Positions 1,098-23,390 of a DNA stretch of 29,670 nucleotides are shown piece after piece (the first letter of the stretch is position 1; the number at the start of each line of letters is the position of its first letter). The stretch is from the IMG/VR virus record IMGVR_UViG_3300045988_131075, positions 1-29,670 of that record. One strand, given 5' to 3'. Under the pieces are notes generated by a model, which was not told the origin of the DNA, ran no database searches, and saw nothing but the letters and a program-made list of their open reading frames with translations. A program made the position numbers and the translations under genes. Origin of the DNA: a virus.

Positions 1098-1205
1098 CCG
1101 CCCGGAGCGTCAGTGATCGGGCGGTCCATTATACCACATTTTCCGATCGGTGTCAATAGGCAAAATGCACAAAAAAATCAGCAGGTTTTAGTCAACCTGC
1201 TGATT
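1098..1205. promoter_or_regulatory. Boundary module C1. It contains a GC hairpin ccgcccg-N13-cgggcgg (1098-1124) and a minus-strand promoter (-10 rc at 1128-1135 within GTGGTATAAT, -35 rc tgtcaa at 1151-1156). It ends with a bidirectional terminator hairpin at 1177-1204.
   Basis: Same architecture as C2-C6. Only a weak TATAAT sits on the + strand at about 1078, with no good -35. Confidence 0.65.
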
Positions 1206-1211
1206 GAATAT

Positions 1212-1628
1212 TTATGCAAGAAATGCGCTTACAATTTCATCGAACACTGTGGGGTTAATGTCCACATTAAAAAAGCGGTCGTTCTTGCGGAACGCTTTGG
1301 GGTATCGTCTAATCAGTTCCGCACGCAACGCGCTTTCCGCACCCTCGGCGGGATAGTCCCCGCAAGAACGGATTCGATGAACTTCAACGCGCGTGATAGA
1401 ATACTTTTTCGAGTATTCACCGATTTCATCACGCAAACGCCCTACAACATCTTTTGCGGAAGTGCCTACCTTGTTAAATTCAAGTTCGTCGTTGTGGTAA
1501 AACTTGAAAAAGTAAACTGCTTGTTCATTTTTCAGATTCTCGCCACAATTAGGCATAAACTCCATAGAAACGGGCGGTCTACCGTCCTTGAATCGACGTA
1601 ACTTAATAGTAATTTCTTCCATTAACAC
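1212..1628 (-). CDS. Hypothetical early protein of about 135 aa. The exact start is uncertain (GTG as in the ORF track, or the ATG two codons downstream).
   Basis: The ORF ends 7 bp from the C1 terminator. The conserved 29-nt leader element at 1641-1669 is upstream. Confidence 0.55.
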   Translation of the reverse strand: MLMEEITIKLRRFKDGRPPVSMEFMPNCGENLKNEQAVYFFKFYHNDELEFNKVGTSAKDVVGRLRDEIGEYSKKYSITRVEVHRIRSCGDYPAEGAESALRAELIRRYPKAFRKNDRFFNVDINPTVFDEIVSAFLA

Positions 1629-1745
1629 AAAATCCTCTCTATTGATTGAGGTTTACCATCGTTCTCTCAACCATTATTTTTTGCACTTTTTTGCTTGTTT
1701 TCGGGTGAAAAACCGCATTTTTCAGCGGTTTTTCACCCTTTTTTG

Positions 1746-2153
1746 TCAATTTTTGGGCTTTCGCTTCTGAATCAGGGTCAATTCATAGTCATTTTCGCCC
1801 ACATGGAACGCAATCATGCGCTCAATGTTCGTGATTTCCACATTTTCGCACGCATTTTCGCTGTTTTCACGCAAAAAAGTCGCAAGTTCAGCGATAATCG
1901 AGCGTTTTGTGGGGTTTTCCTTGCGCTGTCGCTTCTCAAACTTATAAGCGGTCGGCGCTTTGCGTGTTCCGGTCTTAGAATACTTGTTAGCTTCTTTGAG
2001 CTTTTCCGCGGACAAGTCAAAGTCTTTGGCGATTCCATGGTCAATGTCATCATCGTCCATGAGAATTTCTTTTGCTTCCTCGGCAGTACAATCCAACTTT
2101 TTCATCAGATTATCAATCTTTGCCTGAAAGTCCTTTTCACTCATTTTAGGCAT
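1746..2153 (-). CDS. Hypothetical early protein (135 aa) with an acidic, K-rich middle segment.
   Basis: RBS GGGGG 8 nt upstream of the ATG. Consensus promoter directly upstream, TTGACA(2201-2206 rc)-17-TATAAT(2178-2183 rc). Confidence 0.65.
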   Translation of the reverse strand: MPKMSEKDFQAKIDNLMKKLDCTAEEAKEILMDDDDIDHGIAKDFDLSAEKLKEANKYSKTGTRKAPTAYKFEKRQRKENPTKRSIIAELATFLRENSENACENVEITNIERMIAFHVGENDYELTLIQKRKPKN

Positions 2154-2221
2154 TTCTTTTGCCCCCTTTCAAGTATGATTATAACACCGCCGTCAGCAAA
2201 TGTCAAGAGAAATTTTTGGGA

Positions 2222-2250
2222 GCGCCTGATTTTTTTTCAGGCGCTCCCCT
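2222..2250. terminator. Strong intergenic hairpin gggagcgcctga-T8-tcaggcgctccc between two minus-strand genes. Possibly a terminator or attenuator, but it has no clear distal T-run.
   Basis: A 12-bp perfect stem with a T8 loop. It lies immediately downstream of gene 2255..2632 and upstream of the promoter at 2178-2206. Confidence 0.4.
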
Positions 2251-2254
2251 TGAA

Positions 2255-2632
2255 TCAATGCGCCATGCGGAAGTAGGACTTGCGCTTGTCCACAATCTTT
2301 TCCACCGTGTCTGCGTCAATCATCTGGCGCAGAAGAGCGGAAACGCGCTGGTTGGTGAGGTCGCCCAGACCGTCCACATTCTTAATGAGGTCGGTCACGG
2401 TATACAGCTTGTCAGGATTCGCGGACAGCTCAGCAAAGATAATGTCCTTGTAGCCGTCGTTGGCAATCTGATTCGCGGTCGGCTTCTTATCACCGGCGTT
2501 CTTGCGAGACAGCAGGTCGATTTCGTGATTGATAAACTCAACCATAGCGGGGTCAGCCTGAACCTCGCTCATTTTGAGCAAAGCCTCGAAACGGTCGCGC
2601 TTGGTGAGCTTCTTAACAGTAGAAGTAGACAT
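2255..2632 (-). CDS. Paralog A of a duplicated 125-aa early protein. The C-terminal part (KLYTVTDLIK...RVSALLRQMIDADTV) could be a winged-helix-like DNA-binding fold.
   Basis: RBS AAAGGAATTGATACT-ATG is identical to that of paralog B. Promoter TTGACA(2707-2712 rc)-17-TATACT(2684-2689 rc). About 70% identity to 4668..5048. Confidence 0.7.
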   Translation of the reverse strand: MSTSTVKKLTKRDRFEALLKMSEVQADPAMVEFINHEIDLLSRKNAGDKKPTANQIANDGYKDIIFAELSANPDKLYTVTDLIKNVDGLGDLTNQRVSALLRQMIDADTVEKIVDKRKSYFRMAH

Positions 2633-2930
2633 AGTATCAATTCCTTTCTTTGGCGGTAGGTCGCTACCCTTTTGATATTATTAAGTATACCACATTTTAG
2701 AGGGCTTGTCAAGAGGTTTCGCAAACTTTTCACACGAATTACTACCCCGACCTGACGGATAATTTATTGTTTGTTGATTCAATCTATTTGTCAGCAAAAA
2801 TGCTTCGAGGATAATTGGTTCAATCAAACTCACTTTCACGTTCAACGTTTGGCTTTACAACGTGGTGTATTATGTTTTCTTCCTATACTTTCTCAAGGTC
2901 GCGCGCCCTCGGATTTCTTGGGCTACTCCC

Positions 2931-3290
2931 TCTTGACATTTTCTATTGTAGCACACTCGCTGGGATTTGTCAAGAAGTTTTCAAGAAAAAACTCATGAAT
3001 TTTTTCTTTTATCCCGTGCGTTCCGCTCCGAAGAGACCTTAACGTAATAGGTGAACGGTCTATTGCTACTTCCAACCGTAGCCCCACACCGACCTGTGGC
3101 TCAGGGGTTTCCCTCTTGACATTATTTATTGTAGCACTTTTCGCGCTACTTGTCAAGAGGGAATTTCAAATTTCTTTGAAAACGGGTCAGTTACCGAGTT
3201 ATCACACCCATCAGCGAAGCCGTTCGGCAATTCACTGTTCCCTCCTGACATTATCTATTATAGCAGATTGCCCACAGATTACAATTGACA
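2931..3290 (-). promoter_or_regulatory. Non-coding array of three palindromic promoter-like elements, E1 (2931-2975), E2 (3114-3160) and E3 (3243-3290). Each has the form cTCTTGACAtt-N6-ATTGTAGCA-N12-TTGTCAAGA. On the minus strand each reads as TTGACA-17-TGCTACAAT (E1, E2) or as a perfect extended -10 TGCTATAAT (E3).
   Basis: No ORF with an RBS lies within 2690-3340. The elements are spaced about 185 and 130 bp apart. The ORF-track 77-aa ORF at 2923..3156 is just a translation of these repeats. Confidence 0.6.
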
Positions 3291-3342
3291 AAATAACCAA
3301 ATTACGGGAAAAAATTTTCTTCACTTTTGGTCAACTTTTCTC

Positions 3343-3490
3343 TTGACAAAATTGGCGGGGCGTGGTATAATGGAAAATTCGGACCGCCACGTGCGCCAGC
3401 GGTCCGCCAATTTTATCACAAAAATCCGCGTTTGTCAATAGGCAAAATAGACAAAAAAAACTGCCCATTTTTGGGCAGTTTTTTATTTTA
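3343..3490. promoter_or_regulatory. Boundary module C2. It has a + promoter TTGACA(3343-3348)-17-TATAAT(3366-3371) with TG extension, and a GC hairpin cggaccgc-N12-gcggtccg (3380-3406). A minus promoter follows (-10 rc 3410-3415 with TG, -35 rc 3433-3438), then a bidirectional terminator (stem 3461-3478, T-run to 3484).
   Basis: All elements were read directly. The convergent promoters face each other across the hairpin. Confidence 0.75.
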
Positions 3491-3673
3491 GTCCAGCAGG
3501 TTAATCTCGCCAGGAATCCTAAAAGAATCCGCGTCCAGCGTGGAATTATAGTCCTCGGTAAAGAGTTCAATCATTCCACACTCTGCGCAGATAATATAGT
3601 CATGGTCGATTAAAATGCCCATGTGAGGGTCATTGTCATCAGGGACTACAAAAAGGACTTGTTTAGCGTTCAT
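3488..3673 (-). CDS. Small early protein of about 61 aa (MNAKQVLFVVPDDNDPHMGILIDHDYIICAECGMIELF...), with CxxC plus His and Asp residues that might bind metal.
   Basis: Start re-assigned to the ATG with AAGAGG 8 nt upstream. The gene ends inside the C2 terminator. The hairpin-embedded promoter at 3722-3750 is upstream. Confidence 0.6.
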   Translation of the reverse strand: MNAKQVLFVVPDDNDPHMGILIDHDYIICAECGMIELFTEDYNSTLDADSFRIPGEINLLD

Positions 3674-3750
3674 GTAAAACACCTCTTTCATTTGATACAT
3701 TGATTATACCATAGGGAATAGGACTTGTCAAGCCCTATTCCCTATTTTTT

Positions 3751-4527
3751 TTAGCTCATGTTTATCATGGGATTTTCCTTAATGTTTCGCATGAGCGCGC
3801 GCTGAAACTCGGTAGGCTTGGGGCGTTCCACCGTGGGAGTTTTGAAAAGGGACTTTTCCATTTCCTTGTGCTGTCGGACGCAATAGCGCAGAATCTCAAC
3901 TTCAATGAGGACATCTTCTAATCCCGTGTGGGATTCATCAAAACTGTCCTCGCCGCTGATAAAGCGATAGAGAATTTCTGCGGTGAAACGGAGCTGTCCG
4001 TTCTTGGTCTTGTAGCCGTTCTTTTCGCAATAGTCGCGGTAAGTGGGCATTTTGCCGATAACCTGACGTGCCATTTTCAACGTGTCCCAAATTTCGAGGT
4101 CGTAGGGGAAGAAATAGCGATACTTGCTTTTCGTGTCCCATCTTTGCGCGTTGTTACAGGCGTTAAGGTCGAACCGCATATTATGAGCGCAGACAAAAGA
4201 GCAGTTGTAGCGCTCGACACATTCGCAGAACGCAAGACGAATTTCGTAAAGGTCAGCCATAATGCGAGTGCCGTTTTGAATGTCCTCGACATAGCGGGGA
4301 ATCTTGTCGGCATAGTATGCGGACTGCATGAGGTCGCGCTCGTAGCAGAAAATGTCGCGATTCACAAAAGAATGAGTTTCATAAACATTTCCCTTGGAAT
4401 CAATGACCGCCCACCCAAAGTCGTAGGGCAATACATTTGACATATCCAGCTTATCGCCGTCCTGAATGGTGTTTGCGGTTTCCGTGTCCAGCATAATACC
4501 GTAGTTTCTGCGCCTATCAATACCCAT
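3751..4527 (-). CDS. DEDDh-family (DnaQ-like) 3'-5' exonuclease, 258 aa.
   Basis: Motif Exo I is IMLDTETAN. The C-terminal segment YRFISGEDSFDESHTGLEDV carries the His-x4-Asp of Exo III. Promoter TTGACA-17-TATACT, then the conserved 29-nt leader and AGGAGA RBS upstream (4540-4620). Confidence 0.7.
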   Translation of the reverse strand: MGIDRRRNYGIMLDTETANTIQDGDKLDMSNVLPYDFGWAVIDSKGNVYETHSFVNRDIFCYERDLMQSAYYADKIPRYVEDIQNGTRIMADLYEIRLAFCECVERYNCSFVCAHNMRFDLNACNNAQRWDTKSKYRYFFPYDLEIWDTLKMARQVIGKMPTYRDYCEKNGYKTKNGQLRFTAEILYRFISGEDSFDESHTGLEDVLIEVEILRYCVRQHKEMEKSLFKTPTVERPKPTEFQRALMRNIKENPMINMS

Positions 4528-4667
4528 TTTATCGTCTCCTATTGGAAAAGTAGATTGAGGTTTACCATCGTTCTCTCAACCTCTAAATATAGTATAGCAC
4601 TTTACTATTGGTTTGTCAATAGTTTTTTTGTGGGGCAGGGGATTTTTTTATCCCCTGCCCTTTTCCC

Positions 4668-5048
4668 TTATGCGCGGGAGAAGTAGGACTTGCGGTTGCC
4701 AACCGTCTTGACAACCGTGTCTGCGTCAATCATCTGACGCAGAAGAGCGGAAACGTGCTGGTTGGTATACTCCGCAAGCTTGGGAACGCCCTTGATGAGG
4801 TCGGTCACAGTATACAGCTTGTCGGGGTTTGCGGTCATCTCGTCCAGAATGACCTGCTTCACAGCGTCATTCTCCATCTGCTTGGCCGTGGGCTTCTTGT
4901 CGCCCGCGTTCTTTTTGACGAGCAGTTCAATCTCATGCTCGATGAACGCCACCATATCAGGATTTGCCTGAACCTCGCTCATTTTGAGCAGGGCCTCGAA
5001 ACGGTCACGCTTGGTGAGCTTCTTAGTCGTAGTAGTAGAAGTAGCCAT
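4668..5048 (-). CDS. Paralog B of the duplicated 125-aa early protein. It starts at MATSTTTTKKLTKRD, not at the ORF-track M 17 codons upstream, because the promoter -10 at 5101-5107 would put the TSS inside that extension.
   Basis: RBS aaaggaattgatact-ATG is identical to that of 2255..2632. The two proteins are about 70% identical with conserved ends. Confidence 0.7.
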   Translation of the reverse strand: MATSTTTTKKLTKRDRFEALLKMSEVQANPDMVAFIEHEIELLVKKNAGDKKPTAKQMENDAVKQVILDEMTANPDKLYTVTDLIKGVPKLAEYTNQHVSALLRQMIDADTVVKTVGNRKSYFSRA

Positions 5049-5545
5049 AGTATCAATTCCTTTCTGGTTTTTGAGACTGTCCTTGTCTATGGTAGTCATT
5101 ATATCATAGGCGGGAGTAGGTTGTCAATAGGTTTTTGCAATTTTTTTTAAGGGCGGTCGCGAGGTTTATTACTATACATCTTGTTTATACCTACCTTTAT
5201 CTATACTCTTAATCCAATTCAATTTACTAAGCCATTAGTTTTTAAGGCGGTGGACGAGCATTAGAAGTCATCTTGTTTTTACCTCTCTCATTTGATGTAT
5301 TCATTATACCCTACGTAGAACGATTTGTCAAGGGGTTTTTCAAACTTTTTTGAAAGTTTGTTCGGCACGCCACGCTTGGAACATTCCGTCGGATTTTGGT
5401 ATAATGGTCAAGGGAACTGCCTTTCCGCAGGTCTTACTCTTTCCTCCTGACATTATGTAGTATAGCAGATTGGTAATGATTTGTCTATTGGTAAAATGAC
5501 CAAATAACGGGAAAAAATAAAATTGAAATTTGTGCGAAATTTCTC

Positions 5546-5690
5546 TTGACAAAAATGCTGGCAGGGTGTATAATGGTAAATTCCGGCCGTAGCGCGCGGA
5601 AACGGCCGGCCCATTATATCACATTCAAGGAACTTTGTCAATAGTCAAAGTAAACAAAAAAATCTCCCCATTTTTGGGGAGATTTTCTTT
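5546..5690. promoter_or_regulatory. Boundary module C3. It has a + promoter TTGACA(5546-5551)-17-TATAAT(5569-5574), a hairpin ccggccg-N13-cggccgg (5583-5609) and a minus promoter (-10 rc ATTATA at 5613-5618 with TG, -35 rc at 5636-5641). It ends in a terminator, tctcccca-T5-ggggaga at 5664-5682 plus T-run.
   Basis: Direct reading. Confidence 0.75.
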
Positions 5691-5947
5691 TAGCCAATCA
5701 CATTGACTTCGGTTTTGACAGGCGTTACCATCTTGTCGCGCGAGAACTCGCGAACCTGACCCGTTTCAAGATTCACCGCGTAGCAATACTGCAAACCTCT
5801 CGACCGGACAAACGGCGTGTTGTTGTTGCTGTCAATTTTGAGATACATTCCCATACCGACCCCATTGGAGCGCAGAGTGGTGAACGTGCCACCGCTGGGA
5901 ATGTTGATAATTTGGAGCTGACCCTTAGTGCCAAAATTTACTTTCAT
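5690..5947 (-). CDS. Hypothetical early protein of about 85 aa (MKVNFGTKGQLQIINIPSGGTF...). Start set at the ATG with AAGAGGG 7 nt upstream.
   Basis: Ends at the C3 terminator. The following gene (5962..6276) lies 15 bp upstream. Confidence 0.55.
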   Translation of the reverse strand: MKVNFGTKGQLQIINIPSGGTFTTLRSNGVGMGMYLKIDSNNNTPFVRSRGLQYCYAVNLETGQVREFSRDKMVTPVKTEVNVIG

Positions 5948-5961
5948 TTTTATTCCCTCTT

Positions 5962-6276
5962 TCAAAATTCTTCTAAAAAGTGAATCGGCTTATGGTTTGG
6001 TCTAAAAAATGCCATTCCCTCGGTATAAAGAGAATTAAACAAATCTGCGGACACTTCAAACCATTCCGTGCCGCTAATGCGATTGCCTAACTCACTTAAA
6101 GTCAGATGACAAGAATTTTCCATGTCTCGACTTCCAGCGCAAGTGCTACGCATTATTGCTTTTGGATTATGGCTATAATAGCTTTTACGACGCTTTGCAA
6201 GGTTTTTAGTGCCGTCAGAATAGCCAACTTTAACCAAATGGCTATTGGTTAAATTATCCATCATCAAATACAGCAT
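5962..6276 (-). CDS. T5orf172-domain (GIY-YIG-like) protein, 104 aa.
   Basis: N-terminal LVKVGYSDGTKNLAKRRKSY and the C-terminal TEWFEV motif are typical of the T5orf172 family. RBS GAGG 5 nt before the ATG. Confidence 0.5.
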   Translation of the reverse strand: MLYLMMDNLTNSHLVKVGYSDGTKNLAKRRKSYYSHNPKAIMRSTCAGSRDMENSCHLTLSELGNRISGTEWFEVSADLFNSLYTEGMAFFRPNHKPIHFLEEF

Positions 6277-6283
6277 TTTTACC

Positions 6284-6427
6284 TCACAGCAGATGGATAT
6301 TAACCCATTCTGCGGTCACAAGTCCGATTTCCTTAGAGACAACCGTTTCATAGCGGTAATTACCGCCATCAGTTCGTCCGGTCACTTTGGCGAGAACGCC
6401 AAGAGTAAGCCAAAAATAAGGCATCAT
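6284..6427 (-). CDS. Small protein of about 47 aa (MMPYFWLTLGVLAKVTGRTDGGNYRYETVVSKEIGLVTAEWVNIHLL). The ORF-track 97-aa ORF is an N-terminally over-extended version that overlaps the upstream gene.
   Basis: RBS AAAGGGG 8 nt upstream of the ATG. The preceding gene ends 6 bp upstream. Confidence 0.45.
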   Translation of the reverse strand: MMPYFWLTLGVLAKVTGRTDGGNYRYETVVSKEIGLVTAEWVNIHLL

Positions 6428-6432
6428 TTTTA

Positions 6433-6639
6433 TCACCCCTTTGGACCGACCGTAAAGAGCGAACGCAGAAGCAACAGAACAATCCAAATTGCGAGTGCCA
6501 GCTTCCACGAGAACACAATGACGAAAGTGCCGATTGCGGTGATACCGAGGGCGGGAAGAAGCCAACAGAGAAGCCAAACCAGACCAGAGGTGAGCAGGAA
6601 CGAAATTGCGAGAGACAGCAGAATCAAAAGAACAAACAT
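6433..6639 (-). CDS. Small polytopic membrane protein, 68 aa, almost entirely hydrophobic.
   Basis: Promoter, then the conserved leader (gaatacatcaaatgaaaaggaga) and RBS upstream at 6640-6700. The -35 lies in the gggctttgtcaagccc palindrome. Confidence 0.6.
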   Translation of the reverse strand: MFVLLILLSLAISFLLTSGLVWLLCWLLPALGITAIGTFVIVFSWKLALAIWIVLLLLRSLFTVGPKG

Positions 6640-6694
6640 TTTATTTTCTCCTTTTCATTTGATGTATTTATTATACCATTGGAGTAGGGCTTTG

Positions 6695-7195
6695 TCAAGC
6701 CCTTTTCTCCAAAAGTTCCGAAAGTTTTTCGATAATGTTTACTGCGGTCGGGTCAATGGTAGCGCCCAAGTGCCAACCATTCCGAACTTTTTCATTATCG
6801 TCAACCAAGATGGACACGTCATAGCGGTCGCGCACGCTGTCGGCCTTAGTTGCGCCATACTGGACGCCATGGAAGTGGTCATAGTGGAAGCCCTGTTCTT
6901 CAAGCCATGCGCGCTTTGCTTCACGCACGAGGCTTTTGTATTCCTCGCTCGAATCCTTAGAGAGCCAAGTAATGATATTGATTTCCCAGCCCTCGGCGCG
7001 GAGAAGTTCGCAAACCTCATTCAATTCAGCCATGTCGCACATGGGAACGGCAGTTCGATAGGGCTTAGGATTTTCCGAACGGAGAAGCGCAAGCCAATCC
7101 TTGACGCCGTAGAGGTCAGCGATAGTGCCGTCCATGTCAAAGTTGATGGAGCGCCGACGAGCCACAACGTGGGACTTGATGTAAGTGATTTTCAT
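6695..7195 (-). CDS. HAD-superfamily 5'(3')-deoxyribonucleotidase-like protein, 166 aa.
   Basis: HAD motif I is FDMDGTIAD (DxDGT). Motif IV is ILVDDN near the C-terminus. The size and layout match the NT5C-type phage nucleotidases. Confidence 0.6.
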   Translation of the reverse strand: MKITYIKSHVVARRRSINFDMDGTIADLYGVKDWLALLRSENPKPYRTAVPMCDMAELNEVCELLRAEGWEINIITWLSKDSSEEYKSLVREAKRAWLEEQGFHYDHFHGVQYGATKADSVRDRYDVSILVDDNEKVRNGWHLGATIDPTAVNIIEKLSELLEKRA

Positions 7196-7201
7196 AGACG
7201 T

Positions 7202-7444
7202 TTATCTCTCCCCATTATCGTCTTTTTTAATAGCAACGCAGTCGTTTGACAGGTCATAGCAGAGCATAACCATAGTGTCAATAGCTTCGCGGTTGAAGCA
7301 AGTGCCGTTAGCTTCAAATGTTGCGGTGTCCTGATGGTTGAGTTCAGCACGAATACTTTCAAGAATTTCACTCATGCGGTCGATAGTATCGAGTTCTTCA
7401 TCAGTGAATGTGATGATGGCTTTCGAGCAAGAGTTGATAATCAT
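7202..7444 (-). CDS. Hypothetical acidic early protein, 80 aa.
   Basis: Consensus promoter TTGACA-17-TATAAT upstream (7455-7510 rc) and GGGG RBS. Stop and start abut the neighbouring genes. Confidence 0.55.
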   Translation of the reverse strand: MIINSCSKAIITFTDEELDTIDRMSEILESIRAELNHQDTATFEANGTCFNREAIDTMVMLCYDLSNDCVAIKKDDNGER

Positions 7445-7535
7445 TTTGGTTTACCCCTTTCCTTTACTATACTTGTATTATACCACTATTGGATTTGCTT
7501 GTCAAGTGTTTTTTTCAAAATTTTCGCGGTCTTTC

Positions 7536-7679
7536 TCAATACACGAAAGATAAGAAATTAAGCAAAATCAGCACAGGAATAGCGTATACGATATTGAAAT
7601 AGTCCCACCCGAGACTTTCACAGGAATAAGCAAAAATAAAGCCAAAAACGAGGCCGAAAATGCCGATTAAAATAATCAT
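7536..7679 (-). CDS. Small membrane peptide of about 47 aa (MIILIGIFGLVFGFIFAYSCESLGWDYFNIVYAIPVLILLNFLSFVY). Its start ATG overlaps the stop of the upstream gene (ATGA).
   Basis: AGAGGA 6 nt upstream of the ATG. This is the C-terminal part of the ORF-track ORF 7536..7721. Confidence 0.45.
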   Translation of the reverse strand: MIILIGIFGLVFGFIFAYSCESLGWDYFNIVYAIPVLILLNFLSFVY

Positions 7680-7939
7680 TCTAAATCCTCTATATGACCA
7701 TAGTGTTCGTTGATATGCCATTCAAGATAGGTATTAGTCGCAATCTGAATTTCTCTATCCAGCCAGTCATAAAAATCCTCGGGGTCGCGGGCCATGCGTT
7801 CATCAATGATATCTTTGAGAGAAACGCGGTGAGCAAGGAATTCCGAAATATCAAGAGAATCCATAGAAGAAAGAAGTTCTTCCACACATTCTCCGCGAGT
7901 AGAGAACTTTTCAGTAGAAAAATCGTGAGTGTAATACAT
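7676..7939 (-). CDS. Hypothetical acidic early protein, 87 aa.
   Basis: Promoter TAGACA-17-TATACT (7960-8000 rc) and GGGG RBS. The longer overlapping ORF 7690..8124 reads through this promoter and is rejected. Confidence 0.55.
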   Translation of the reverse strand: MYYTHDFSTEKFSTRGECVEELLSSMDSLDISEFLAHRVSLKDIIDERMARDPEDFYDWLDREIQIATNTYLEWHINEHYGHIEDLE

Positions 7940-8057
7940 TGTTTGTATCCCCTTTCTTTATGGTAATTATAGTATAGCAGATTATTACATTCTTGTCTAT
8001 TGGTAAAATGCCCAAATTCGGGAAAATAATTAGTTGGACTTTTGGCTAAATTTCCTA

Positions 8058-8200
8058 TTGACAAATTGCTGAGATGGTGGTATAATGGAATTTCCGGCCG
8101 TGGCATGCGCGAACGGCCGGCCATTTTATCACACTATTGGATTTTTGTCAATAGGCAAAATAGCTAAAAAAATGAGGTGAAAATTCACCTCAAATTTTAT
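8058..8200. promoter_or_regulatory. Boundary module C4. It has a + promoter TTGACA(8058-8063)-17-TATAAT(8081-8086) with TGG extension, a hairpin ccggccg-N13-cggccgg (8094-8120) and a minus promoter (-10 rc 8123-8128, -35 rc 8146-8151). The terminator is gaggtgaaaattcacctc at 8174-8191.
   Basis: Direct reading. Confidence 0.75.
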
Positions 8201-8376
8201 CTGTGATAACTGGTAGTAATGGTTTTGAAAATCTGATAGATATTTTCATCTTCCATCAACTTTTGGATAAAAGCATCAGCTTCTTCTTCGGAATCAAAAC
8301 TAACTCGATTATCATAATACTGGTCCCAAGGATTTTTACCGCTGTAATCAACCCGGAATGTCTTTTCAATTTCCAT
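8197..8376 (-). CDS. 59-aa acidic protein missed by the 60-aa ORF threshold (MEIEKTFRVDYSGKNPWDQYYDNRVSFDSEEEADAFIQKLMEDENIYQIFKTITTSYHR).
   Basis: RBS AAAAGGGG 8 nt upstream. Hairpin-embedded promoter at 8410-8447. The gene ends at the C4 terminator. Confidence 0.55.
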   Translation of the reverse strand: MEIEKTFRVDYSGKNPWDQYYDNRVSFDSEEEADAFIQKLMEDENIYQIFKTITTSYHR

Positions 8377-8451
8377 TTTATTTGCCCCTTTTCTTTGATG
8401 CTTTTATTGTAGCACAAGGGACTTGTTTTGTCAAGCCCCTTGTGCTATTTT

Positions 8452-8904
8452 TTAACGTTCAGACACAATGCTAAGGTAGCGGACAATCATGTCCATTTCG
8501 CAACCCATGTCTTGCTGGTCGCAAACCGCATAACCCACAAGGTCGCCGTCCGCACAAATCGGGTAAACACCATAAGTGTTATTGAAAACAAATGGCTTTC
8601 TTTTAAAATCCCACTGGGTCGAAACATAAGGCGGAAAGTTTTCCATACCCCGCAGTTTCACGGTAGTATCATAGATTGCGATGGGACGCAGACCGGAATT
8701 CGATGCCATTGTAATAGCGGTTCGCAGAGCTTCTTCGGTCAGCGAACCAAGCACCGAATATCTCTTGAAGCAAACGCAGTCGTTGTCTTCAATGAAGATT
8801 TCAAGCGGGTCGCCCTCGCGAATCTTCAAAGTCCGGCGAATCTCTTTCGGAATGACCACACGTCCAAGGTCATCAATTCTGCGAACAATACCAGTAGCTT
8901 TCAT
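8452..8904 (-). CDS. SpoVT/AbrB-family transcriptional regulator, 150 aa, with an N-terminal swapped-hairpin AbrB domain.
   Basis: The N-terminus MKATGIVRRIDDLGRVVIPKEIRRTLKIREGDPLEIF is near-identical in pattern to Bacillus AbrB and SpoVT N-domains. Promoter and conserved leader upstream. Confidence 0.75.
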   Translation of the reverse strand: MKATGIVRRIDDLGRVVIPKEIRRTLKIREGDPLEIFIEDNDCVCFKRYSVLGSLTEEALRTAITMASNSGLRPIAIYDTTVKLRGMENFPPYVSTQWDFKRKPFVFNNTYGVYPICADGDLVGYAVCDQQDMGCEMDMIVRYLSIVSER

Positions 8905-8968
8905 TTTAATTTTCCCCTTTCACTTGATACGTTAAGTATAGCAGAACAAAAGGCTTTTGTCAAGCCCT

Positions 8969-9451
8969 TTATTCAAGATTTTTGCTTTCTGCGACAAAAT
9001 ATTTTGCTTCATATTGATTGGCAATAGCCTTGACTTTTGCACTTTCCTTTTGGGTCGCGCAGTAAAAATTGAAAAGCGTATGTTTATCGCTTAATTTAAT
9101 GTAAGAGTGTGGAACGTCATGCAAGCCAAAGTCAATGGTATTAGTGTATCTTGTCGGGACAGTCAGCTCGACTTTCCATAGCTTGTCTTTGCGGGCTTTC
9201 TCTTCAATCCACTTGACAAAGTAGACGCCTACGAAATTACAAACAGCAGTAATAGCCATTTTCAACCAGATAGGCATACCGTCCGCGGAAGTCAGCACAA
9301 TCACATAGGAATAAAAACCATAAGTGATAGCATTGATAAGAGATGCGCTAATTTTTCCGCCGTTGACAGTCAAAATGCTTTTGATAGTTGACAGAACCAC
9401 ATTTACCGCCGTGCAAAGCGCGAACAGAAGAATTGTATTCATTATTATCAC
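8969..9451 (-). CDS. Membrane protein of 160 aa with about 3 TM segments in the N-terminal half.
   Basis: ORF with RBS AAGGAAAGGG. A promoter is upstream at 9480-9505. Confidence 0.55.
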   Translation of the reverse strand: MIIMNTILLFALCTAVNVVLSTIKSILTVNGGKISASLINAITYGFYSYVIVLTSADGMPIWLKMAITAVCNFVGVYFVKWIEEKARKDKLWKVELTVPTRYTNTIDFGLHDVPHSYIKLSDKHTLFNFYCATQKESAKVKAIANQYEAKYFVAESKNLE

Positions 9452-9515
9452 CCTTTCCTTTTTCTATTATAATAATATCATATTATAATAGAAATGTCAA
9501 TAGAGAATTTTTAAT

Positions 9516-9674
9516 TTACTCTTTTAATTTTTCTAATAGAGCATCAGCACATTCATAGCTGGTACTTCTGCGGTCGCACTCGTTGGACAAAGGACAACAC
9601 GCGCAGTCGTTAAAGGTCTCTACCCAAGCGCGCAACCAGTCAATCAAGCGCAAAGTATTAACTTCCTCATACAT
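9516..9674 (-). CDS. Cys-rich 52-aa protein (MYEEVNTLRLIDWLRAWVETFNDCACCPLSNECDRRSTSYECADALLEKLKE) that is translationally coupled: its ATG sits inside the 3' end of the upstream gene.
   Basis: AAAGGAG 10 nt upstream. An ATGTATGA overlap with the stop of 9667..10014. Confidence 0.4.
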   Translation of the reverse strand: MYEEVNTLRLIDWLRAWVETFNDCACCPLSNECDRRSTSYECADALLEKLKE

Positions 9675-10014
9675 TGTTATCATTCTCCTTTACTCGGACA
9701 AAAAAGACCTTGTTATAGATTTTTGTTGCTTTAAGGTCAATCCAGAAATACACGTTTCCGCATACTCGATAGATTTTACAAGTCTCTCCGCTAACCTTTT
9801 TGACTTCCTCAAATTTCTCTGGTGTTGTAGGGTGGAAAACCGTCAGTTTGAGAAATATGCAATAGAAAGCCAAAGGAACGAAGCCGATAATCATAGCAAT
9901 CCATGCGAGAACATCAGTTAAAGTGTTTTCCCATTCACACTACTCATCGGTAATTGTAGCGAACGCAATACCTACGCAAAACGCGAGAATTAACCAATAC
10001 CATGCAACCATCAT
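9667..10014 (-). CDS. Two-TM membrane protein. It is 115 aa if the in-frame TAG at 9940-9942 is read through; otherwise it is a 24-aa peptide plus the ORF-track 75-aa ORF.
   Basis: The only strong RBS (GGGGG 6 nt before the ATG) is at the upstream start at 10014. The ORF-track start at 9894 has no Shine-Dalgarno site. The two ORFs are in the same frame and separated only by TAG. Promoter TAGACA-17-TAAGAT upstream. Confidence 0.45.
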
Positions 10015-10118
10015 TTTGTTCCCCCTTTATTTGTTGTATACATCTTACCACATTATAGGATTTTTGTCTATTGGCATTTTACACAAAAATTCGTGCGAAA
10101 ATTTGTTGAACTTACCTC

Positions 10119-10240
10119 TTGACAAAAAACTCGGCGCGCCACAATCGTCCGCGCGCCGCCAATTTTATCACATTCAAGGAACTTTGTCAATAGTGAAAGT
10201 AAACAAAAAAAATCACCCAAATTGGGTGATTTTTCATTTA
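10119..10240. promoter_or_regulatory. Boundary module C5. It has a + TTGACA (10119-10124) directly abutting the hairpin cggcgcgc-N11-gcgcgccg (10132-10158), with no + strand -10. A minus promoter follows (-10 rc 10162-10167, -35 rc 10185-10190), then a terminator tcacccaaattgggtga (10213-10229) plus T-run.
   Basis: Compared with C2-C4, about 23 bp between the + -35 and the hairpin are missing. Confidence 0.7.
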
Positions 10241-10414
10241 GTTTCCTACGGCTTCGAGGTCGACGAGAATGGGAACGAGCTTGTCTTCAAGAAGCGCGAC
10301 ACGCTCAATCATTTCATTTGCTGCTGTTCCGCCCGACGGGTATCTCTTCTGAATGCCGTATCGAGCCATTCTGCACACCGTTTCAACAACCTCGCTCAGT
10401 TTCTCATTCTTCAT
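10238..10414 (-). CDS. Small protein of about 58 aa (MKNEKLSEVVETVCRMARYGIQKRYPSGGTAANEMIERVALLEDKLVPILVDLEAVGN).
   Basis: GGAG 9 nt upstream of this ATG. The ORF-track start 5 codons upstream lacks an RBS. Confidence 0.5.
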   Translation of the reverse strand: MKNEKLSEVVETVCRMARYGIQKRYPSGGTAANEMIERVALLEDKLVPILVDLEAVGN

Positions 10415-10526
10415 TTTTCTTATCTCCATTCAATTTATTTTTTGGAAAGGGTGGCGGTTGTTTCAGGCACAACCGCCAAAGCCATAGGAAAGGGGGAGAA
10501 AAAACACGAACAAAAGTTCGGTTTTG

Positions 10527-10775
10527 TCAAGGGATAATCAGTTCCGCATCGTAGACAGGTCGAACCATGCAGGGCGCGCTGAAGCAGTCAAGATTGTAAG
10601 TGTCCAAATTGAGAGCGTTCCATTTTTCTGCGCCGGTATCTTCATCAACCACAGACGCAGTTTTGATGTAATAGACGTTTCCGGAAGCGGGGTCTTGAAA
10701 AATCATACCCTCGAGGAGGTCTTCAAATGCAACCATTTTGTTGCTATGCTTAACAGTAATTTTCATTTCATTCAC
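10527..10775 (-). CDS. Hypothetical protein of 82 aa or slightly shorter, overlapping the upstream gene by ATGA.
   Basis: ORF coupled to 10772..11125. A weak hairpin plus T-run is downstream at about 10500-10520 (minus strand). Confidence 0.5.
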   Translation of the reverse strand: MNEMKITVKHSNKMVAFEDLLEGMIFQDPASGNVYYIKTASVVDEDTGAEKWNALNLDTYNLDCFSAPCMVRPVYDAELIIP

Positions 10776-11125
10776 CCTTTATAATAGTATTTGTAAGCCC
10801 ATTCGATGATTTCATGACTTGTGGTAGTCCATTCCTCTTTGGGGCTATCGAACTTTTCCGCATACTTTTTGATGTAGTTATTATACTCCATGCGTGCGGT
10901 GTCGTATGCTCCAATAGCCACAATTAAGGCGTGCTTCGCTTCTTCGGCATCAGAGACGGCTTTCTTGCGGTCGGGGCAGTCAGGATAGAGGTTAATCACC
11001 CCTACGCGCGTAATGACTTGCCTTGTCTTTTCATAAAGGCGGTCGCGCGTTTCCCATACTTCATAGAGCTCATCATCTGCACGTTTTTCATAAGGGTTGA
11101 AAGGCTTCTTTTTCTTACCGAACAT
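10772..11125 (-). CDS. Hypothetical protein of about 117 aa (MFGKKKKPFNPYEKRADDELYEVWETRDRLYEK...). The ORF-track N-terminal extension runs into the upstream gene and is rejected.
   Basis: AAAAGGAG about 11 nt upstream of the ATG. Overlaps the stop of 11115..11453. Confidence 0.5.
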   Translation of the reverse strand: MFGKKKKPFNPYEKRADDELYEVWETRDRLYEKTRQVITRVGVINLYPDCPDRKKAVSDAEEAKHALIVAIGAYDTARMEYNNYIKKYAEKFDSPKEEWTTTSHEIIEWAYKYYYKG

Positions 11126-11453
11126 TTTTCTTTTTCTCCTTTTCCTGTTTATTCCACATTCTATCAAAGAACGCATTTGCGAGAACACGCTTGTAAAGGT
11201 TGTCAGGCATGGGGCGCTCGCCGTGCTTGTTTCTCCAAATCGCGGTGATTTTATCAATATCCGCGATATAGGCTGTAATGAGTGTGCCGTCCTTGGCGCT
11301 ACGAATAAGAAGAATACCGGTTGTAGTGATAGTGTAGAGAACATCGTCCTCAACGCTGTCGATATACGGTTCGCCGATTCCTACATTATCGTAGATGAAG
11401 AGCAGGCGGTCAATGCGGTCTTGCGTGGCGTGTTTTGACATTTTGATAAGCAT
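11115..11453 (-). CDS. Hypothetical protein of 112 aa.
   Basis: AAGAGG 8 nt upstream of the ATG. Extended -10 TGGTATAAT upstream (11468-11480 rc). Confidence 0.55.
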   Translation of the reverse strand: MLIKMSKHATQDRIDRLLFIYDNVGIGEPYIDSVEDDVLYTITTTGILLIRSAKDGTLITAYIADIDKITAIWRNKHGERPMPDNLYKRVLANAFFDRMWNKQEKEKKKNVR

Positions 11454-11514
11454 TTGTTTTACCTCTTTCTTTTCCTCTTGGATTGATTATATTATACCAT
11501 GCGGAAGGGCTTTT

Positions 11515-11550
11515 TGGAAAAAGAGGGAAAAATTTTCCCTCTTTATTTAT
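11515..11550. terminator. Bidirectional terminator agaggga-aaaatttt-tccctct with a flanking A-run and T-run.
   Basis: Downstream of the minus gene 11547..11819. The hairpin is at 11522-11542. Confidence 0.55.
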
Positions 11551-11819
11551 CCCCAATAGATTGAAAGAATCTTGTCAATGTAGCTGGCTTTATAGCCATA
11601 ATTCTGCATAATATCTTTGCAAGCCTGCTTGACCCTCTTGTCATTTATTGAAGCAAGAGAACATTCGTAAAGTGTTTCTCCCGTTCCGGCCACACGCTCA
11701 ATTTCTGGCATGATGTGGTCTTCAATGAACGCACGCGCAAGGGCATTATTTTTAGCTTGGATTTCTTTGCGAACTTCCTCGGCTTTGCGCGTCATTTCAT
11801 AAGCATATTTAATTTCCAT
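11547..11819 (-). CDS. Hypothetical protein of 90 aa.
   Basis: Promoter TTGACA-17-TACAAT sits in the hairpin gcatataggg/ccctatatgc (11852-11895). RBS AAAGGGAG. Confidence 0.6.
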   Translation of the reverse strand: MEIKYAYEMTRKAEEVRKEIQAKNNALARAFIEDHIMPEIERVAGTGETLYECSLASINDKRVKQACKDIMQNYGYKASYIDKILSIYWG

Positions 11820-11897
11820 GGTGTTTCTCCCTTTCCTTTATTGTATCTTTATTGTAGCATATAGGGCTTGTTTTGTCAAGCCCTATATGCAATTTTT

Positions 11898-12206
11898 TTA
11901 GCAATAGGCGAGATTCCCGCGTGCCCAGCCATATACGCTGATTTGATTGCACGCCTTGCCAATTTCAAGCGCCTGCTTTTTGGTCTGCACCCTCTTGGAC
12001 TTGTCAACATAATAGATGCCGTTCGCAAGCCATACACCGCAGTTTCCGCCGAAGCCCTTAACCGCATTGATAGCTTCGCGGGCGGTCTTGCACTCAACGC
12101 CGTTGGTAGCGACCTGCCAACCGGACTTGTAGTTGACTTTCTTGCCATATTTGAGGGTCATGCCGTCGTTTTCAGCGAGCTTGCGAATAGAACGAATGTT
12201 AATCAT
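11898..12206 (-). CDS. Hypothetical protein of about 102 aa (MINIRSIRKLAENDGMTLKYGKKVNYKSGWQVATNG...), with the start re-assigned.
   Basis: AAAGGGA 7 nt before this ATG. Promoter TAGACA-17-TATACT upstream. The ORF-track 156-aa version starts upstream of that promoter. Confidence 0.5.
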   Translation of the reverse strand: MINIRSIRKLAENDGMTLKYGKKVNYKSGWQVATNGVECKTAREAINAVKGFGGNCGVWLANGIYYVDKSKRVQTKKQALEIGKACNQISVYGWARGNLAYC

Positions 12207-12334
12207 GTTGTTATCCCTTTCCGGTTTGGTAGGTTTTCCTTCCCTTACTGTGATTATAGTATAGCACCGATTCGGGATTCTGTCTATTGACATTATGCAC
12301 AAACTTTCGTCATAAAAATTGTTGAACTTGCCTA

Positions 12335-12455
12335 TTGACACAAAATTCCGGCCGCGCCTGGCGTGCACGGCCGGCCGATTATATCACCAAGTTTTGAAAT
12401 TGTCAATAGGCAAAATATACAAAAAAATCTCCCCATTTTTGGAGAGATTTTTAAT
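12335..12455. promoter_or_regulatory. Boundary module C6. It has a + TTGACA (12335-12340) abutting the hairpin ccggccg-N13-cggccgg (12348-12374) and a minus promoter (-10 rc ATTATA at 12378-12383 with TG, -35 rc at 12401-12406). The terminator is tctcccca-T5-ggagaga (12428-12447).
   Basis: Like C5, it lacks the + strand -10. Confidence 0.7.
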
Positions 12456-12498
12456 TCAAAAAATTTAATTTTAACCATCAACATAAATGATAAGAACA

Positions 12499-12711
12499 TC
12501 ATCTTTGGCTTTCAAACCGCTGACAGGCAAATCCCAGCACCCATTCTTCGCTTACGCCCAAAACATCACCATTCAGAGTCATGCGACCTTTGCGGTCTTT
12601 GAGATAGCGCCCGCAAGTGTTTTCATTTATCACTTCAATGCCGTTCCCCTCATAGAACATCAGTGCGCCTTTTACCAGACCAATCACATTTTTAACCATG
12701 CCCAAAGTCAT
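12499..12711 (-). CDS. Hypothetical protein of about 70 aa (MTLGMVKNVIGLVKGALMFYEGNGIEV...).
   Basis: AAAGAGG 8 nt upstream. Promoter TTGACT-17-TATACT. Ends 45 bp from the C6 terminator. Confidence 0.55.
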   Translation of the reverse strand: MTLGMVKNVIGLVKGALMFYEGNGIEVINENTCGRYLKDRKGRMTLNGDVLGVSEEWVLGFACQRFESQR

Positions 12712-12820
12712 TTTATCAACCTCTTTCGTTTTTAATGTCGTTCCCTTGGAACAATTATAGTATAGCACAAGGTGTAGCAAAAGTCAACTTAAATTTTGGG
12801 ATTACCAATAGATAAAATGT

Positions 12821-12867
12821 ATAAAAATTCGGCAGGATTTTGTGTATCCTGCCGAATTTTTTTTATT
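12821..12867. terminator. Bidirectional terminator ggcaggat-tttgtgt-atcctgcc followed by T8.
   Basis: Stem at 12831-12853, with A/T runs on both sides. Confidence 0.6.
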
Positions 12868-13057
12868 CTTCCCAACTTTCGATGACTTCGCCGGTCATTG
12901 CATCGATGATGTCAACCGAGAGGACGTTGTCTGCGTCCATGACCTTCTGCCCGAGGGCATATGCGTTTTCCTGTCCCGCGACAGACACTTCATAGCGATA
13001 GCGGTTGTTATCGCCAGCCTTGTAATTGTAGTAGTTGACAGAAACAATAAATGACAT
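12863..13057 (-). CDS. Hypothetical protein of 64 aa.
   Basis: RBS AAAGGGGA. Promoter TTGACA-16/17-TATAAT upstream (13090-13130). Confidence 0.6.
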   Translation of the reverse strand: MSFIVSVNYYNYKAGDNNRYRYEVSVAGQENAYALGQKVMDADNVLSVDIIDAMTGEVIESWEE

Positions 13058-13161
13058 TTGGCTTATCCCCTTTCTTTTTATACTCTTATTATACCATAGA
13101 TTCAGGATTTGTCAATAGGTTTTTGAAAAAAGTTTGAAAAAAAATAAGGGCGTTTCCGCCC

Positions 13162-13419
13162 TTATTCTTCATAAATAATAATATTATTTTGTAGCAGTTT
13201 CACGCGAGAATCTTCACAAAAGTGATAGGTAAAACTCACGGAGAGGTGTTTGAGAAATTCGCGTCTCCATGTGCGGGACTTCGGCTCTAATTCAAAGAGA
13301 ATGTAAAGCGTTTCTTCTAACCGGTCGAGGAAGTTTTCAGTGTCCGCGACGTTGAACTTACCCGCGAATTTCGGAATAGGATTAGAAGTCCCAACAGTAA
13401 TAATGTTGTAAGTTGTCAT
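13162..13419 (-). CDS. Hypothetical protein of 85 aa.
   Basis: Conserved leader plus AAGGAG 8 nt upstream. Promoter TTGACA-17-TATAAT (13440-13475 rc). Confidence 0.6.
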   Translation of the reverse strand: MTTYNIITVGTSNPIPKFAGKFNVADTENFLDRLEETLYILFELEPKSRTWRREFLKHLSVSFTYHFCEDSRVKLLQNNIIIYEE

Positions 13420-13506
13420 GGAAAAATCTCCTTTTCATTTGATGCTTTTATTATACATGATAGTGTGGAACTTGTCAATACTTAAAATAGAAAAAAGAGA
13501 AGTTTT

Positions 13507-13611
13507 TCAACTTCTCTTTTTCAGTTTCTTTTCTGCCCATTCAATGAGCGCACCCACGGCGATTGTACCGGTATAAATGAAAAGTAAAACTAAACCATCA
13601 TGTAGACTCAT
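13507..13611 (-). CDS. Alternative model, gene 2 of 2: a 34-aa single-TM peptide (MSLHDGLVLLFIYTGTIAVGALIEWAEKKLKKRS).
   Basis: GGAGG 9 nt upstream of the ATG. Same frame and stop as the ORF-track 76-aa ORF 13507..13737. Confidence 0.4.
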   Translation of the reverse strand: MSLHDGLVLLFIYTGTIAVGALIEWAEKKLKKRS

Positions 13612-13612
13612 T

Positions 13613-13741
13613 TTAATATTCCTCCACATACTCTGTAAAAACAAGCTCCCAGTCAGGGCCAAGATCCGGAGCTTTGCAGTATCGCGACTGTCGAATGTCA
13701 TGCTCATTAGTGATTTTGTTGATAAACTCGAATTCATACAT
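13613..13741 (-). CDS. Alternative model, gene 1 of 2: a 42-aa acidic protein (MYEFEFINKITNEHDIRQSRYCKAPDLGPDWELVFTEYVEEY).
   Basis: AAAGGAGA about 10 nt upstream of this ATG (14 nt for the ORF-track ATG in another frame). Its TAA is followed after 1 nt by the ATG of gene 2. Confidence 0.4.
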   Translation of the reverse strand: MYEFEFINKITNEHDIRQSRYCKAPDLGPDWELVFTEYVEEY

Positions 13742-13830
13742 TTTTTATTATCTCCTTTTCTTTACTGTACCAATAGTATAGCAGATAACAGGGTATTTGT
13801 CAATACCATTTATAAAAAAATGTACGAGGT

Positions 13831-14127
13831 TTAATCCTCGTACATTTCCATTAACGATTTGATTTTTTCGATTGTATTTTCAATTTCTTCTACATAGTCG
13901 GCCTGTTCCTCACTTGCGCGCATTGCCTGTTCATATGCGTCATAGATAGCTTCACACTGTTCGCGGGTGTAGTCTTCTTCTGGAGCGTGTTCCATGGTGA
14001 CGACTGCCGTCCAAGCGAGCGTTTCCTTATCGTCAAGGTCATCGGCTTTTTCCGTGGCAGTGGTAAGCTCATGTTCGAGGCGCGTCTTTTCGAGCGAGAG
14101 GGTCTTGAGAAAATCCTTGTTAGTCAT
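13831..14127 (-). CDS. Acidic coiled-coil protein of about 98 aa (MTNKDFLKTLSLEKTRLEHELTTATEKADDLDDKE...).
   Basis: The ORF-track start is the ATG inside the conserved leader (caaATGaaaaggaga). The real start is 8 codons downstream, after that RBS. Confidence 0.6.
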   Translation of the reverse strand: MTNKDFLKTLSLEKTRLEHELTTATEKADDLDDKETLAWTAVVTMEHAPEEDYTREQCEAIYDAYEQAMRASEEQADYVEEIENTIEKIKSLMEMYED

Positions 14128-14328
14128 TGCGGTGTATCTCCTTTTCATTTGATGCCTTTATCATACCACTTCTGGACTGAATGTCAATAGGTTTTTGAAA
14201 AAAATATTTATTCATCAGGGCTGTATAAATATTCATGTATAAATATTCATTTTCGGGTGTATAAAGGCGACTGGCATAATGCACAAAATGGTTTCAAAAT
14301 TTTTGTGCAATATAACTATTGCAAAACT

Positions 14329-14355
14329 CGGCGCGCTGCGACCCACAGCGCGCCG
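14329..14355. promoter_or_regulatory. Orphan copy (C7) of the module GC hairpin, cggcgcgc-N11-gcgcgccg. It has no associated promoter or terminator.
   Basis: Same stem as C5, with a different loop. Flanked by AT-rich tandem repeats. Confidence 0.55.
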
Positions 14356-14382
14356 GCCAAATGCATATGTATGATTATTCAT

Positions 14383-14440: not shown

Positions 14441-14450
14441 ACATAATATG

Positions 14451-14830: not shown

Positions 14831-14852
14831 TTTGTTTTACCTCTTTCTTACT

Positions 14853-23381: not shown

Positions 23382-23390
23382 GGAGGATTT

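Follow-up and report, generated by a model that had tools for sequence, protein, structure and literature searches.

The viral DNA analysed here, IMG/VR record IMGVR_UViG_3300045988_131075 from position 1 to 29,670 (the window, all 29,670 nucleotides of it), contains three sites at which a promoter and a transcription terminator appear to be built from the same base pairs. From 1 to 17,200 the window is an array of short genes on the minus strand only, which contains about 30 promoters of host type, all at or near consensus, and numerous hairpin terminators with A/T flanks. Plus-strand genes follow from 17,265 on; this part is AT-rich and packed with in-frame TAG codons. The protein relatives are 100-197-kb phage contigs of IMG/VR, Enterococcus phages of 134-142 kb, and phAss-1, a human-gut phage of the 'code 15 clade' (PMC10607447). 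These relatives were collected via protein similarity, since megablast against the GenBank phages gave no near DNA match to the window; Rfam and tRNA scans of the window gave no matches. Judged by its protein relatives and gene layout, the window spans the junction between the early and the late genes of a large gut Firmicutes phage, and the three sites fall in its early, host-polymerase-dependent region. The best-supported reading of each site is a compact composite of terminator and promoter, in which an ordinary promoter is combined with a terminator hairpin that is under selection.

Each of the three sites (3711-3752, 8410-8453 and 11857-11899; Table 1) contains a minus-strand promoter of the sigma-A type whose -35 box stands at the tip of a hairpin of 11-16 pairs, with one arm of the hairpin occupying the promoter spacer. 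The minus strand, on which the early genes lie, is called the gene strand below. The order along it is the same each time: the TAA stop codon of the upstream gene, a run of A6-8 that starts inside this stop, an arm of 10-11 nt, (G)CTTGACAA containing the -35, the complementary arm within the 17-bp spacer, the -10 hexamer (TATAAT or TACAAT), and lastly the conserved leader, with ribosome-binding site and ATG behind it. Read on the plus strand, each site is a stem-loop followed by T8, T6 or AA-T7. A preliminary description of this DNA had reported a minus-strand -35 inside a hairpin at all three places, and this is indeed what the sequence contains, although the starts it gave for sites 1 and 3 lie about 10 bases too far to the right. 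It had put the -35 in the loop. The position at the tip stands, and the CTTG/CAAG elements that flank the -35 also pair in the predicted folds (at site 1, inner CTT/AAG pairs bring the -35 to the tip), so that the box straddles the inner stem and a loop of 3-6 nt. The hairpin begins 6-9 nt past the upstream stop codon and lies at about -15 to -50 of the downstream promoter, upstream of its start site. Because it is thus absent from that promoter's own transcript, the suggestion that hairpin formation in the transcript could modulate promoter clearance has to be abandoned. The stem of site 2 includes the first two bases of the -10, and one of its pairs is G-U in minus-strand RNA and A/C in plus-strand RNA.

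Table 1. Coordinates of the composite sites, their flanking genes, two lesser versions and the plus-strand consensus promoters of the early region
Feature	Position	Strand	Details
Site 1 hairpin	3711..3745		core plus-strand arms TAGGGAATAGG 3712-3722 and CCTATTCCCTA 3734-3744; loop 3723-3733
Site 1 T-run	3745..3752	+	T8 (A8 on -); overlaps TAA stop of upstream gene, 3753-3751
Site 1 promoter	3703..3731	-	TTGACA 3731-3726, 17-bp spacer, TG, TATAAT 3708-3703
Gene upstream of site 1	3751..4527	-	258 aa; homologue in Enterococcus phage H1 annotated exodeoxyribonuclease
Gene downstream of site 1 promoter	3488..3673	-	61 aa
Site 2 hairpin	8410..8447		16 pairs, 6-nt loop
Site 2 T-run	8448..8453	+	T6 (A6 on -); overlaps TAA stop 8454-8452
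Site 2 promoter	8406..8434	-	-35 8434-8429; -10 TACAAT 8411-8406
Gene upstream of site 2	8452..8904	-	150 aa; AbrB/MazE-type domain
Gene downstream of site 2 promoter	8197..8376	-	59 aa
Site 3 hairpin	11857..11890		14 perfect pairs, 6-nt loop
Site 3 tail	11891..11899	+	AA + T7 (A7 then TT on -); overlaps TAA stop 11900-11898
Site 3 promoter	11851..11879	-	-35 11879-11874; -10 TACAAT 11856-11851
Gene upstream of site 3	11898..12368	-	156 aa
Gene downstream of site 3 promoter	11547..11819	-	90 aa
Short version	6686..6703		7-bp stem AGGGCTT/AAGCCCT round -35 of promoter 6698-6670; plus-strand tail TTTTCTC
Degenerate version	8945..8973		round -35 of promoter 8963-8935; 12 pairs, two of them G-U on minus-strand RNA
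Consensus promoter	3343..3371	+	after its convergent partner, next minus promoter on path is site 1
Consensus promoter	5546..5574	+	after its convergent partner, next minus promoter on path is the short-hairpin promoter 6698
Consensus promoter	8058..8086	+	after its convergent partner, next minus promoter on path is site 2

As promoters the three minus-strand elements are as good as sequence alone can show. They match the consensus at 12 of 12 positions at site 1 and at 11 of 12 at sites 2 and 3, all with a 17-bp spacer and a TG extension, and are followed by the conserved leader CATCAAA(T)GAAAGG..ATG. In alignments of relatives of the three sites the -35 and -10 boxes are invariant, except for variants that are still promoter-like. 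They are predicted to be active promoters. Most of the roughly 30 early minus-strand promoters have the TG extension, A-tracts in phase at about -43 and -53, and the leader CATCAAATGAAAAGGAG in common; this arrangement between 1 and 17,200 recalls the host-takeover regions of large Firmicutes phages.

The stems are not the product of chance. The predicted free energies are -18.9, -25.0 and -25.2 kcal/mol for plus-strand RNA of sites 1, 2 and 3, and -23.9, -27.7 and -24.4 kcal/mol for minus-strand RNA, with z-scores against shuffled sequences of -4.2 to -8.8 over all six folds and -4.2 to -7.2 for those of the plus strand. Of the inverted repeats listed for the window, the three hairpins (I2, I6 and I10) are among the ten longest. 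A stem of 9 bp or more encloses the -35 of 72 of the 1051 unique consensus promoters in related phage loci (6.9%); at control positions the count is 45 of 4025 (1.1%), which makes the enrichment six-fold. To enlarge the sample, IMG/VR was scanned for GGGCTTGACAA-N15-TATAAT, but this gave mostly unrelated phages and was used as a control only; such stems are found in 3 of its 104 unique promoters (118 matches).

Comparison of relatives reveals that the pairing itself is maintained. Twelve distinct versions of site 2 share a 17-pair helix in which 96.6% of cells are paired, and both sides have changed at 7 of the 17 pairs. None of 500 shuffles matched the observed score, and slid registers fell far below it. 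At site 3, ATATAGGG/CCCTATAT has become ATAGAGGG/CCCTCTAT in three loci (L102, L107 and L112), and at site 1 AATAGG/CCTATT has become AACAGG/CCTGTT in L013, each a compensatory change. The preliminary description had named conservation of the stems in related genomes as its own test, and compensatory substitutions have preserved them there. Because these changes keep the pairing in related phage contigs, we conclude from the alignments that the stems are kept by selection for pairing. Remoter relatives (L018, L019, L043, L015, L024 and others) have the same layout with wholly different stems. Five such promoters with unrelated stems lie within 3 kb of Enterococcus phage EF1 (MF001358), at 14381, 15153, 15948, 16709 and 17130 of locus L279, and phAss-1 has three of the same layout, again with unrelated stems.

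How are these hairpins related to ordinary terminators? Two relatives, L033 and L036, have the site-2 hairpin, altered by compensatory changes, between A7-8 and T6-7 and without the -10; in L036 the hexamer of the loop has decayed to TTAACA, yet the stem remains intact. In this form its anatomy is simply that of a bidirectional terminator. In the loci L114-L123 the position corresponding to site 3 by orthology has an ordinary terminator, ATAGGGC-gaaa-GCCCTAT, whose core stem is that of site 3; a T-run of about T8, interrupted in three of the loci, comes after it, and a separate promoter stands some 10-25 nt downstream. Relatives with short stems have a T-run inside the spacer, and thus a canonical gene-strand terminator within the promoter, as in AAAAGGGCTTGA-caagc-TCAAGCCCTTTT-gtTATACT of EF1. 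By this comparison the short-stem and long-stem forms are a continuum, with the three sites at the long-stem end and no gene-strand U-tract left. Most promoters of the same class in these phages have no hairpin, and this, together with the forms seen in L033/L036 and in L114-L123, is why we regard the hairpin, from its sequence relationships, as an RNA-type terminator hairpin that lies outside promoter recognition. Ordinary bidirectional terminators are found in the same region at 3455-3484, 10208-10234, 12823-12861 and 13492-13521.

On which strand would the hairpin act? The preliminary description had called the stem, read on the plus strand, an intrinsic terminator, and there the anatomy is complete, a stable stem with T6-T8 after it. 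In this orientation the U-tracts (T8, T6 and AA+T7) lie within 0-2 nt of the stem. The gene-strand tails UGGUAUAAU, CAAUAAAAG and UACAAUAAA have no U-tract directly after the stem, and score about 1.8-2.0 as against 4.6-5.9 on the other strand. Over 25 stem families the antisense tail scores at least 3.5 in ten, and the sense tail in one. A run of at least five A stands beside the stem in 72% of fused promoters and a T-run in none, while T-runs occur upstream of 26% of ordinary promoters. The hairpin would be transcribed on the gene strand only by polymerases coming from the upstream gene. As far as anatomy can tell, termination on the plus strand is the only canonical terminator reading of the three sites; we put the chance that antisense termination is a selected activity there at about even.

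The composite would then work as follows. In the long-stem sites the -10 stands where the gene-strand U-tract would be, and for this reason host polymerase that arrives from the upstream gene (gene 1) would, as we infer, mostly read through, with the promoter adding extra transcription of the downstream gene (gene 2). On the plus strand, the stem and U6-8 would release antisense polymerases once they had passed gene 2 and its promoter, before they entered gene 1. Possible sources of such polymerases are the consensus plus-strand promoters at 3343, 5546 and 8058. An association with promoters of this kind lends the plus-strand reading some support: on the path from the antisense promoter of a convergent module, the second gene-strand promoter is of the hairpin type in 24 of 36 unique modules (all three in the window) compared with 136 of 954 (14%) overall. 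In relatives the hairpin is interchangeable with ordinary terminators at the same position.

The three plus-strand promoters belong to pairs of consensus promoters that face each other about 40 bp apart (3343-3438, 5546-5641 and 8058-8151), flanking a GC-rich hairpin of 8-10 pairs whose sequence varies from copy to copy and which has no match in Rfam. On the minus side the hairpin lies 2-3 nt past the -10, so that the start site falls within the stem. On the plus side it lies 8 nt past the -10, so that the RNA predicted from the plus promoter is a hairpin of about 40 nt with UUUU at its end. At 1128-1156, 10162-10190 and 12378-12406 the minus promoter of the module is present by itself, and relatives have at least 36 distinct face-to-face modules. 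A speculative and rather unlikely extension is that the plus promoters of these convergent modules and the promoters of the hairpin type together form built-in antisense units. An antisense polymerase would sweep exactly one early operon and its promoter, causing interference, and would be released at the T-run on the upstream edge of that promoter, to which it might even be handed over (terminator-coupled reinitiation). If so, the timing or balance of early operons would be encoded in cis, with no need for dedicated regulators.

A number of observations weigh against termination of antisense transcripts as a selected function. The association with convergent modules is inflated by orthologous copies and comes to about 6 of 12 when counted by independent family. 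On its way from each plus promoter of the window to any fused site, a polymerase would meet two other terminators, first a GC-rich hairpin and next a bidirectional one with A/T flanks, and therefore little antisense transcription may reach the fused sites. There is no plus promoter near site 3. A late-promoter motif that might feed plus-strand transcription into the early region could not be defined, the late intergenic regions in the window being too few. Stems of 14-17 bp exceed what a terminator with a perfect U-tract needs, and at sites 1 and 2 the more stable fold is that of gene-strand RNA. The A-run occupies about -49 to -55, a region in which the ordinary promoters of these phages have an A-tract too (about 50% A), phased with a second at -40 to -45, and may be merely an UP-like promoter element; its position relative to the end of the stem would be the same for an antisense U-tract as for an upstream A-tract set as near as the stem allows.

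Nor do the wobble pairs favour the plus strand. A pair that is G-U on gene-strand RNA and an A/C mismatch on plus-strand RNA is of the gene-strand type, and the fused hairpins have 15 of these to 3 of the plus-strand type by sequence, or about 7 to 3 by event, on a background of 64 to 36; once shared ancestry is corrected for, the excess in the fused stems is not above the background bias. This strand test behaves as expected on sense-only terminators (24 of sense type against 6), while in the fused hairpins a few inherited positions dominate. The plus-strand reading does gain from the class of hairpins that have an A-run only, in which the balance is the reverse of that in sense-only terminators, 7 of antisense type to 4 of sense type.

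Hairpins of this A-run-only class also follow gene-strand genes without being tied to a promoter, in the window at 4632-4661 and 1703-1738, in places where read-through would be necessary or would do no harm. Both are strong hairpins just after minus-strand genes, with the T-run on the plus strand only. One is internal to an operon and the other precedes the -35 of the promoter at 4619 by 13 nt. They resemble terminators for the antisense strand only, or else stabilizer hairpins between cistrons, in either case not fused to a promoter.

The strongest alternative gives the hairpin a role purely on the gene strand, as the 3' hairpin of the upstream cistron, with the A-run serving as upstream promoter A-tract and as spacer after the stop codon. 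In one variant it would protect the promoter from occlusion by incoming polymerases, acting as a leaky or factor-assisted terminator or attenuator; in another, a 3'-end stabilizer or processing site in the read-through mRNA. In favour of such a role, the hairpin always comes right after the stop codon of a gene-strand gene, and the A-run has the position of the distal A-tract of ordinary promoters. The relatives are favourable too, with an ordinary gene-strand terminator at the orthologous position in L114-L123, a full terminator in L033/L036 and a canonical gene-strand terminator inside the short-stem promoters of EF1, and co-directional overlaps of terminator and promoter are known elsewhere (PMC6735719). 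The G-U wobbles and the more stable folds at sites 1 and 2 likewise favour gene-strand RNA, although the wobble excess stays within the background bias when the non-independence of sequences is corrected for. Against it stands the gene-strand tail, with no U-tract and a score less than half that of the opposite strand at all three sites. Nor does this explanation account for a homopolymeric A-run that is never a T-run, given that ordinary promoters tolerate upstream T-runs. We consider it a serious possibility, though a doubtful one.

The stems might alternatively have no present function, and be remnants of terminators left when cassettes of promoter and gene were inserted by recombination at the -35 motif. 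The promoter-plus-gene cassette of site 2 is in fact absent in several close relatives, and is present or absent among near-identical genomes. Furthermore, in three loci (L106, L129 and L140) the junctions lie exactly in the -35, the 5' arm being kept and the 3' arm replaced. This history by itself is improbable as an explanation of the sites, as compensatory substitutions hold the stems paired across diverged relatives, the architecture has arisen with many unrelated stems, and long stems are enriched six-fold over control positions.

Recombination itself has left traces at the site 3 orthologues (L106:3440-3500, L140:3470-3530 and L129:3460-3520), where the 5' arm of site 3 and GGGCTTGACAA are joined to the spacer, -10 and gene of another promoter. 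Because the junctions sit exactly there, the conserved -35 motif seems to act as a crossover point for the exchange of gene cassettes.

A switch at the level of DNA can also be envisaged, in which supercoiling drives extrusion of a cruciform that places the -35 in a single-stranded loop and shuts the promoter off, negative supercoiling being held high behind the heavily transcribed early genes. An E. coli promoter that Horwitz and Loeb engineered in 1988 with a palindrome at its -35 is reportedly regulated by a cruciform in this manner (cited in PMC6060812), and at the present sites, too, the -35 of a sigma-70-type promoter is the centre of an inverted repeat. At site 3 the repeat is perfect (14 bp with a 6-nt spacer), and with several relatives it belongs to a set of perfect repeats of 14-17 bp, with spacers of 6-8 nt and very AT-rich flanks that favour extrusion. 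Sites 1 and 2, on the other hand, have an internal G/T mismatch in the DNA stem, leaving arms of 11-12 bp and loops of 11-16 nt that would make poor cruciforms. Unlike that engineered promoter, moreover, the stems here tolerate G-U wobbles, which point to RNA, and interchange with RNA terminators; L033/L036 carry the same hairpin as a plain terminator with no -10. We therefore think a cruciform switch quite improbable. A different kind of promoter palindrome is found at 9461-9494, where a perfect 14-bp inverted repeat (TTTCTATTATAATA / TATTATAATAGAAA) covers the spacer, -10 and start region of promoter 9500-9472.

That the palindromes are operators, where dimeric DNA-binding regulators occlude the -35 and shut the early promoters, is highly improbable: their position over the -35 and spacer is the classical one for a repressor and a gene for an AbrB/MazE-type DNA-binding protein lies directly upstream of site 2, yet there is no common half-site, the arms differ among the three sites of one genome and covary among close relatives (at 7 of 17 positions), the dozens of unrelated arms in relatives would need dozens of regulators, and arms of 14-17 bp abutting the loop are unlike half-sites. 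A hairpin promoter of the N4 type was also considered and rejected. The promoters used by the virion RNA polymerases of N4 and LUZ7 are likewise early phage promoters with a DNA hairpin, but N4-type promoters have stems of 5-7 bp, loops of 3 nt and no -35 or -10, while here there are consensus boxes and stems of 11-17 bp that vary in sequence, and a hairpin is lacking from most promoters of the class.

How does the composite compare with known systems? In Salmonella, the tufB terminator overlaps the secE-nusG promoter and there are overlaps at three other ribosomal operon junctions; they are conserved and tie neighbouring units together (Brandis et al. 2019, PMC6735719). Just as there, the terminator hairpin of the upstream unit overlaps the -35 and -10 of the next co-directional unit. 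The Salmonella terminators act on the gene strand, however, whereas the three phage sites, judged by anatomy, lack a U-tract on that strand and are canonical on the opposite strand only. Here, too, the -35 stands at the hairpin tip with the 3' arm in the spacer, and one phage region has the arrangement many times over, its stems being unrelated. Intrinsic terminators of the bidirectional type, consisting of A-tract, hairpin and U-tract, have the same type of hairpin, and the site-2 hairpin of L033/L036 is exactly of this kind. At the composites, by contrast, the -10 hexamer replaces one of the U-tracts, and the result would be a one-directional terminator pointing against the genes.

T7 class II terminators act as E. 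coli promoters, and the preprint describing this also cites single-molecule reinitiation after termination (bioRxiv 10.64898/2026.02.12.705533). The phage sites resemble such combined terminator-promoters in holding termination and initiation signals in one short DNA segment; the known cases differ, being class II signals that have no hairpin, or separate elements. By analogy, a polymerase released at the terminator might engage the neighbouring promoter again. Our search of the literature found descriptions of terminator-promoter overlaps and of bidirectional terminators, and none with a -35 in the loop of a terminator. What is new here is the geometry, the apparent inversion of strand, and the recurrence with covariation across a phage clade.

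If the composite reading is correct, the signals of a promoter and a terminator can be interleaved down to single bases. The A-tract upstream would serve as U-tract as well, the -35 would be the loop and the spacer the 3' arm, and a terminator could be retained for one strand only. This bears on the way in which dense early regions of phages insulate many strong transcription units and confine antisense transcription, and on the design of very compact synthetic insulators. The composite would also be a recombination boundary for gene cassettes, relevant to phage mosaicism. The design is present in cultured Enterococcus phages as well, and is therefore directly testable.

Other features of the window deserve mention. 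The consensus minus-strand promoters with their -35 at 3156 and 2973 have alike leaders (AATGTCAAGAGGGA...) and are followed by about 130-150 nt with no convincing reading frame; the segments 3000-3156 and 2790-2973 on the minus strand are candidate non-coding RNAs. The early genes have almost no TAG codons, while in the late plus-strand genes at 17315-29645 in-frame TAG is frequent, with up to 12 per gene, and reading through it gives frames of 190-580 codons. This distribution is consistent with recoding of TAG (code 15), as in the relative phAss-1 (PMC10607447). Between early and late genes there is a divergent promoter region at 17156-17293. Within it, a perfect host-type promoter (17265-17293) drives 17315-18373, a homologue of a phage sigma factor (phrog_5767) that is interrupted by two TAG codons and has a zinc-finger/HNH-like C-terminus.

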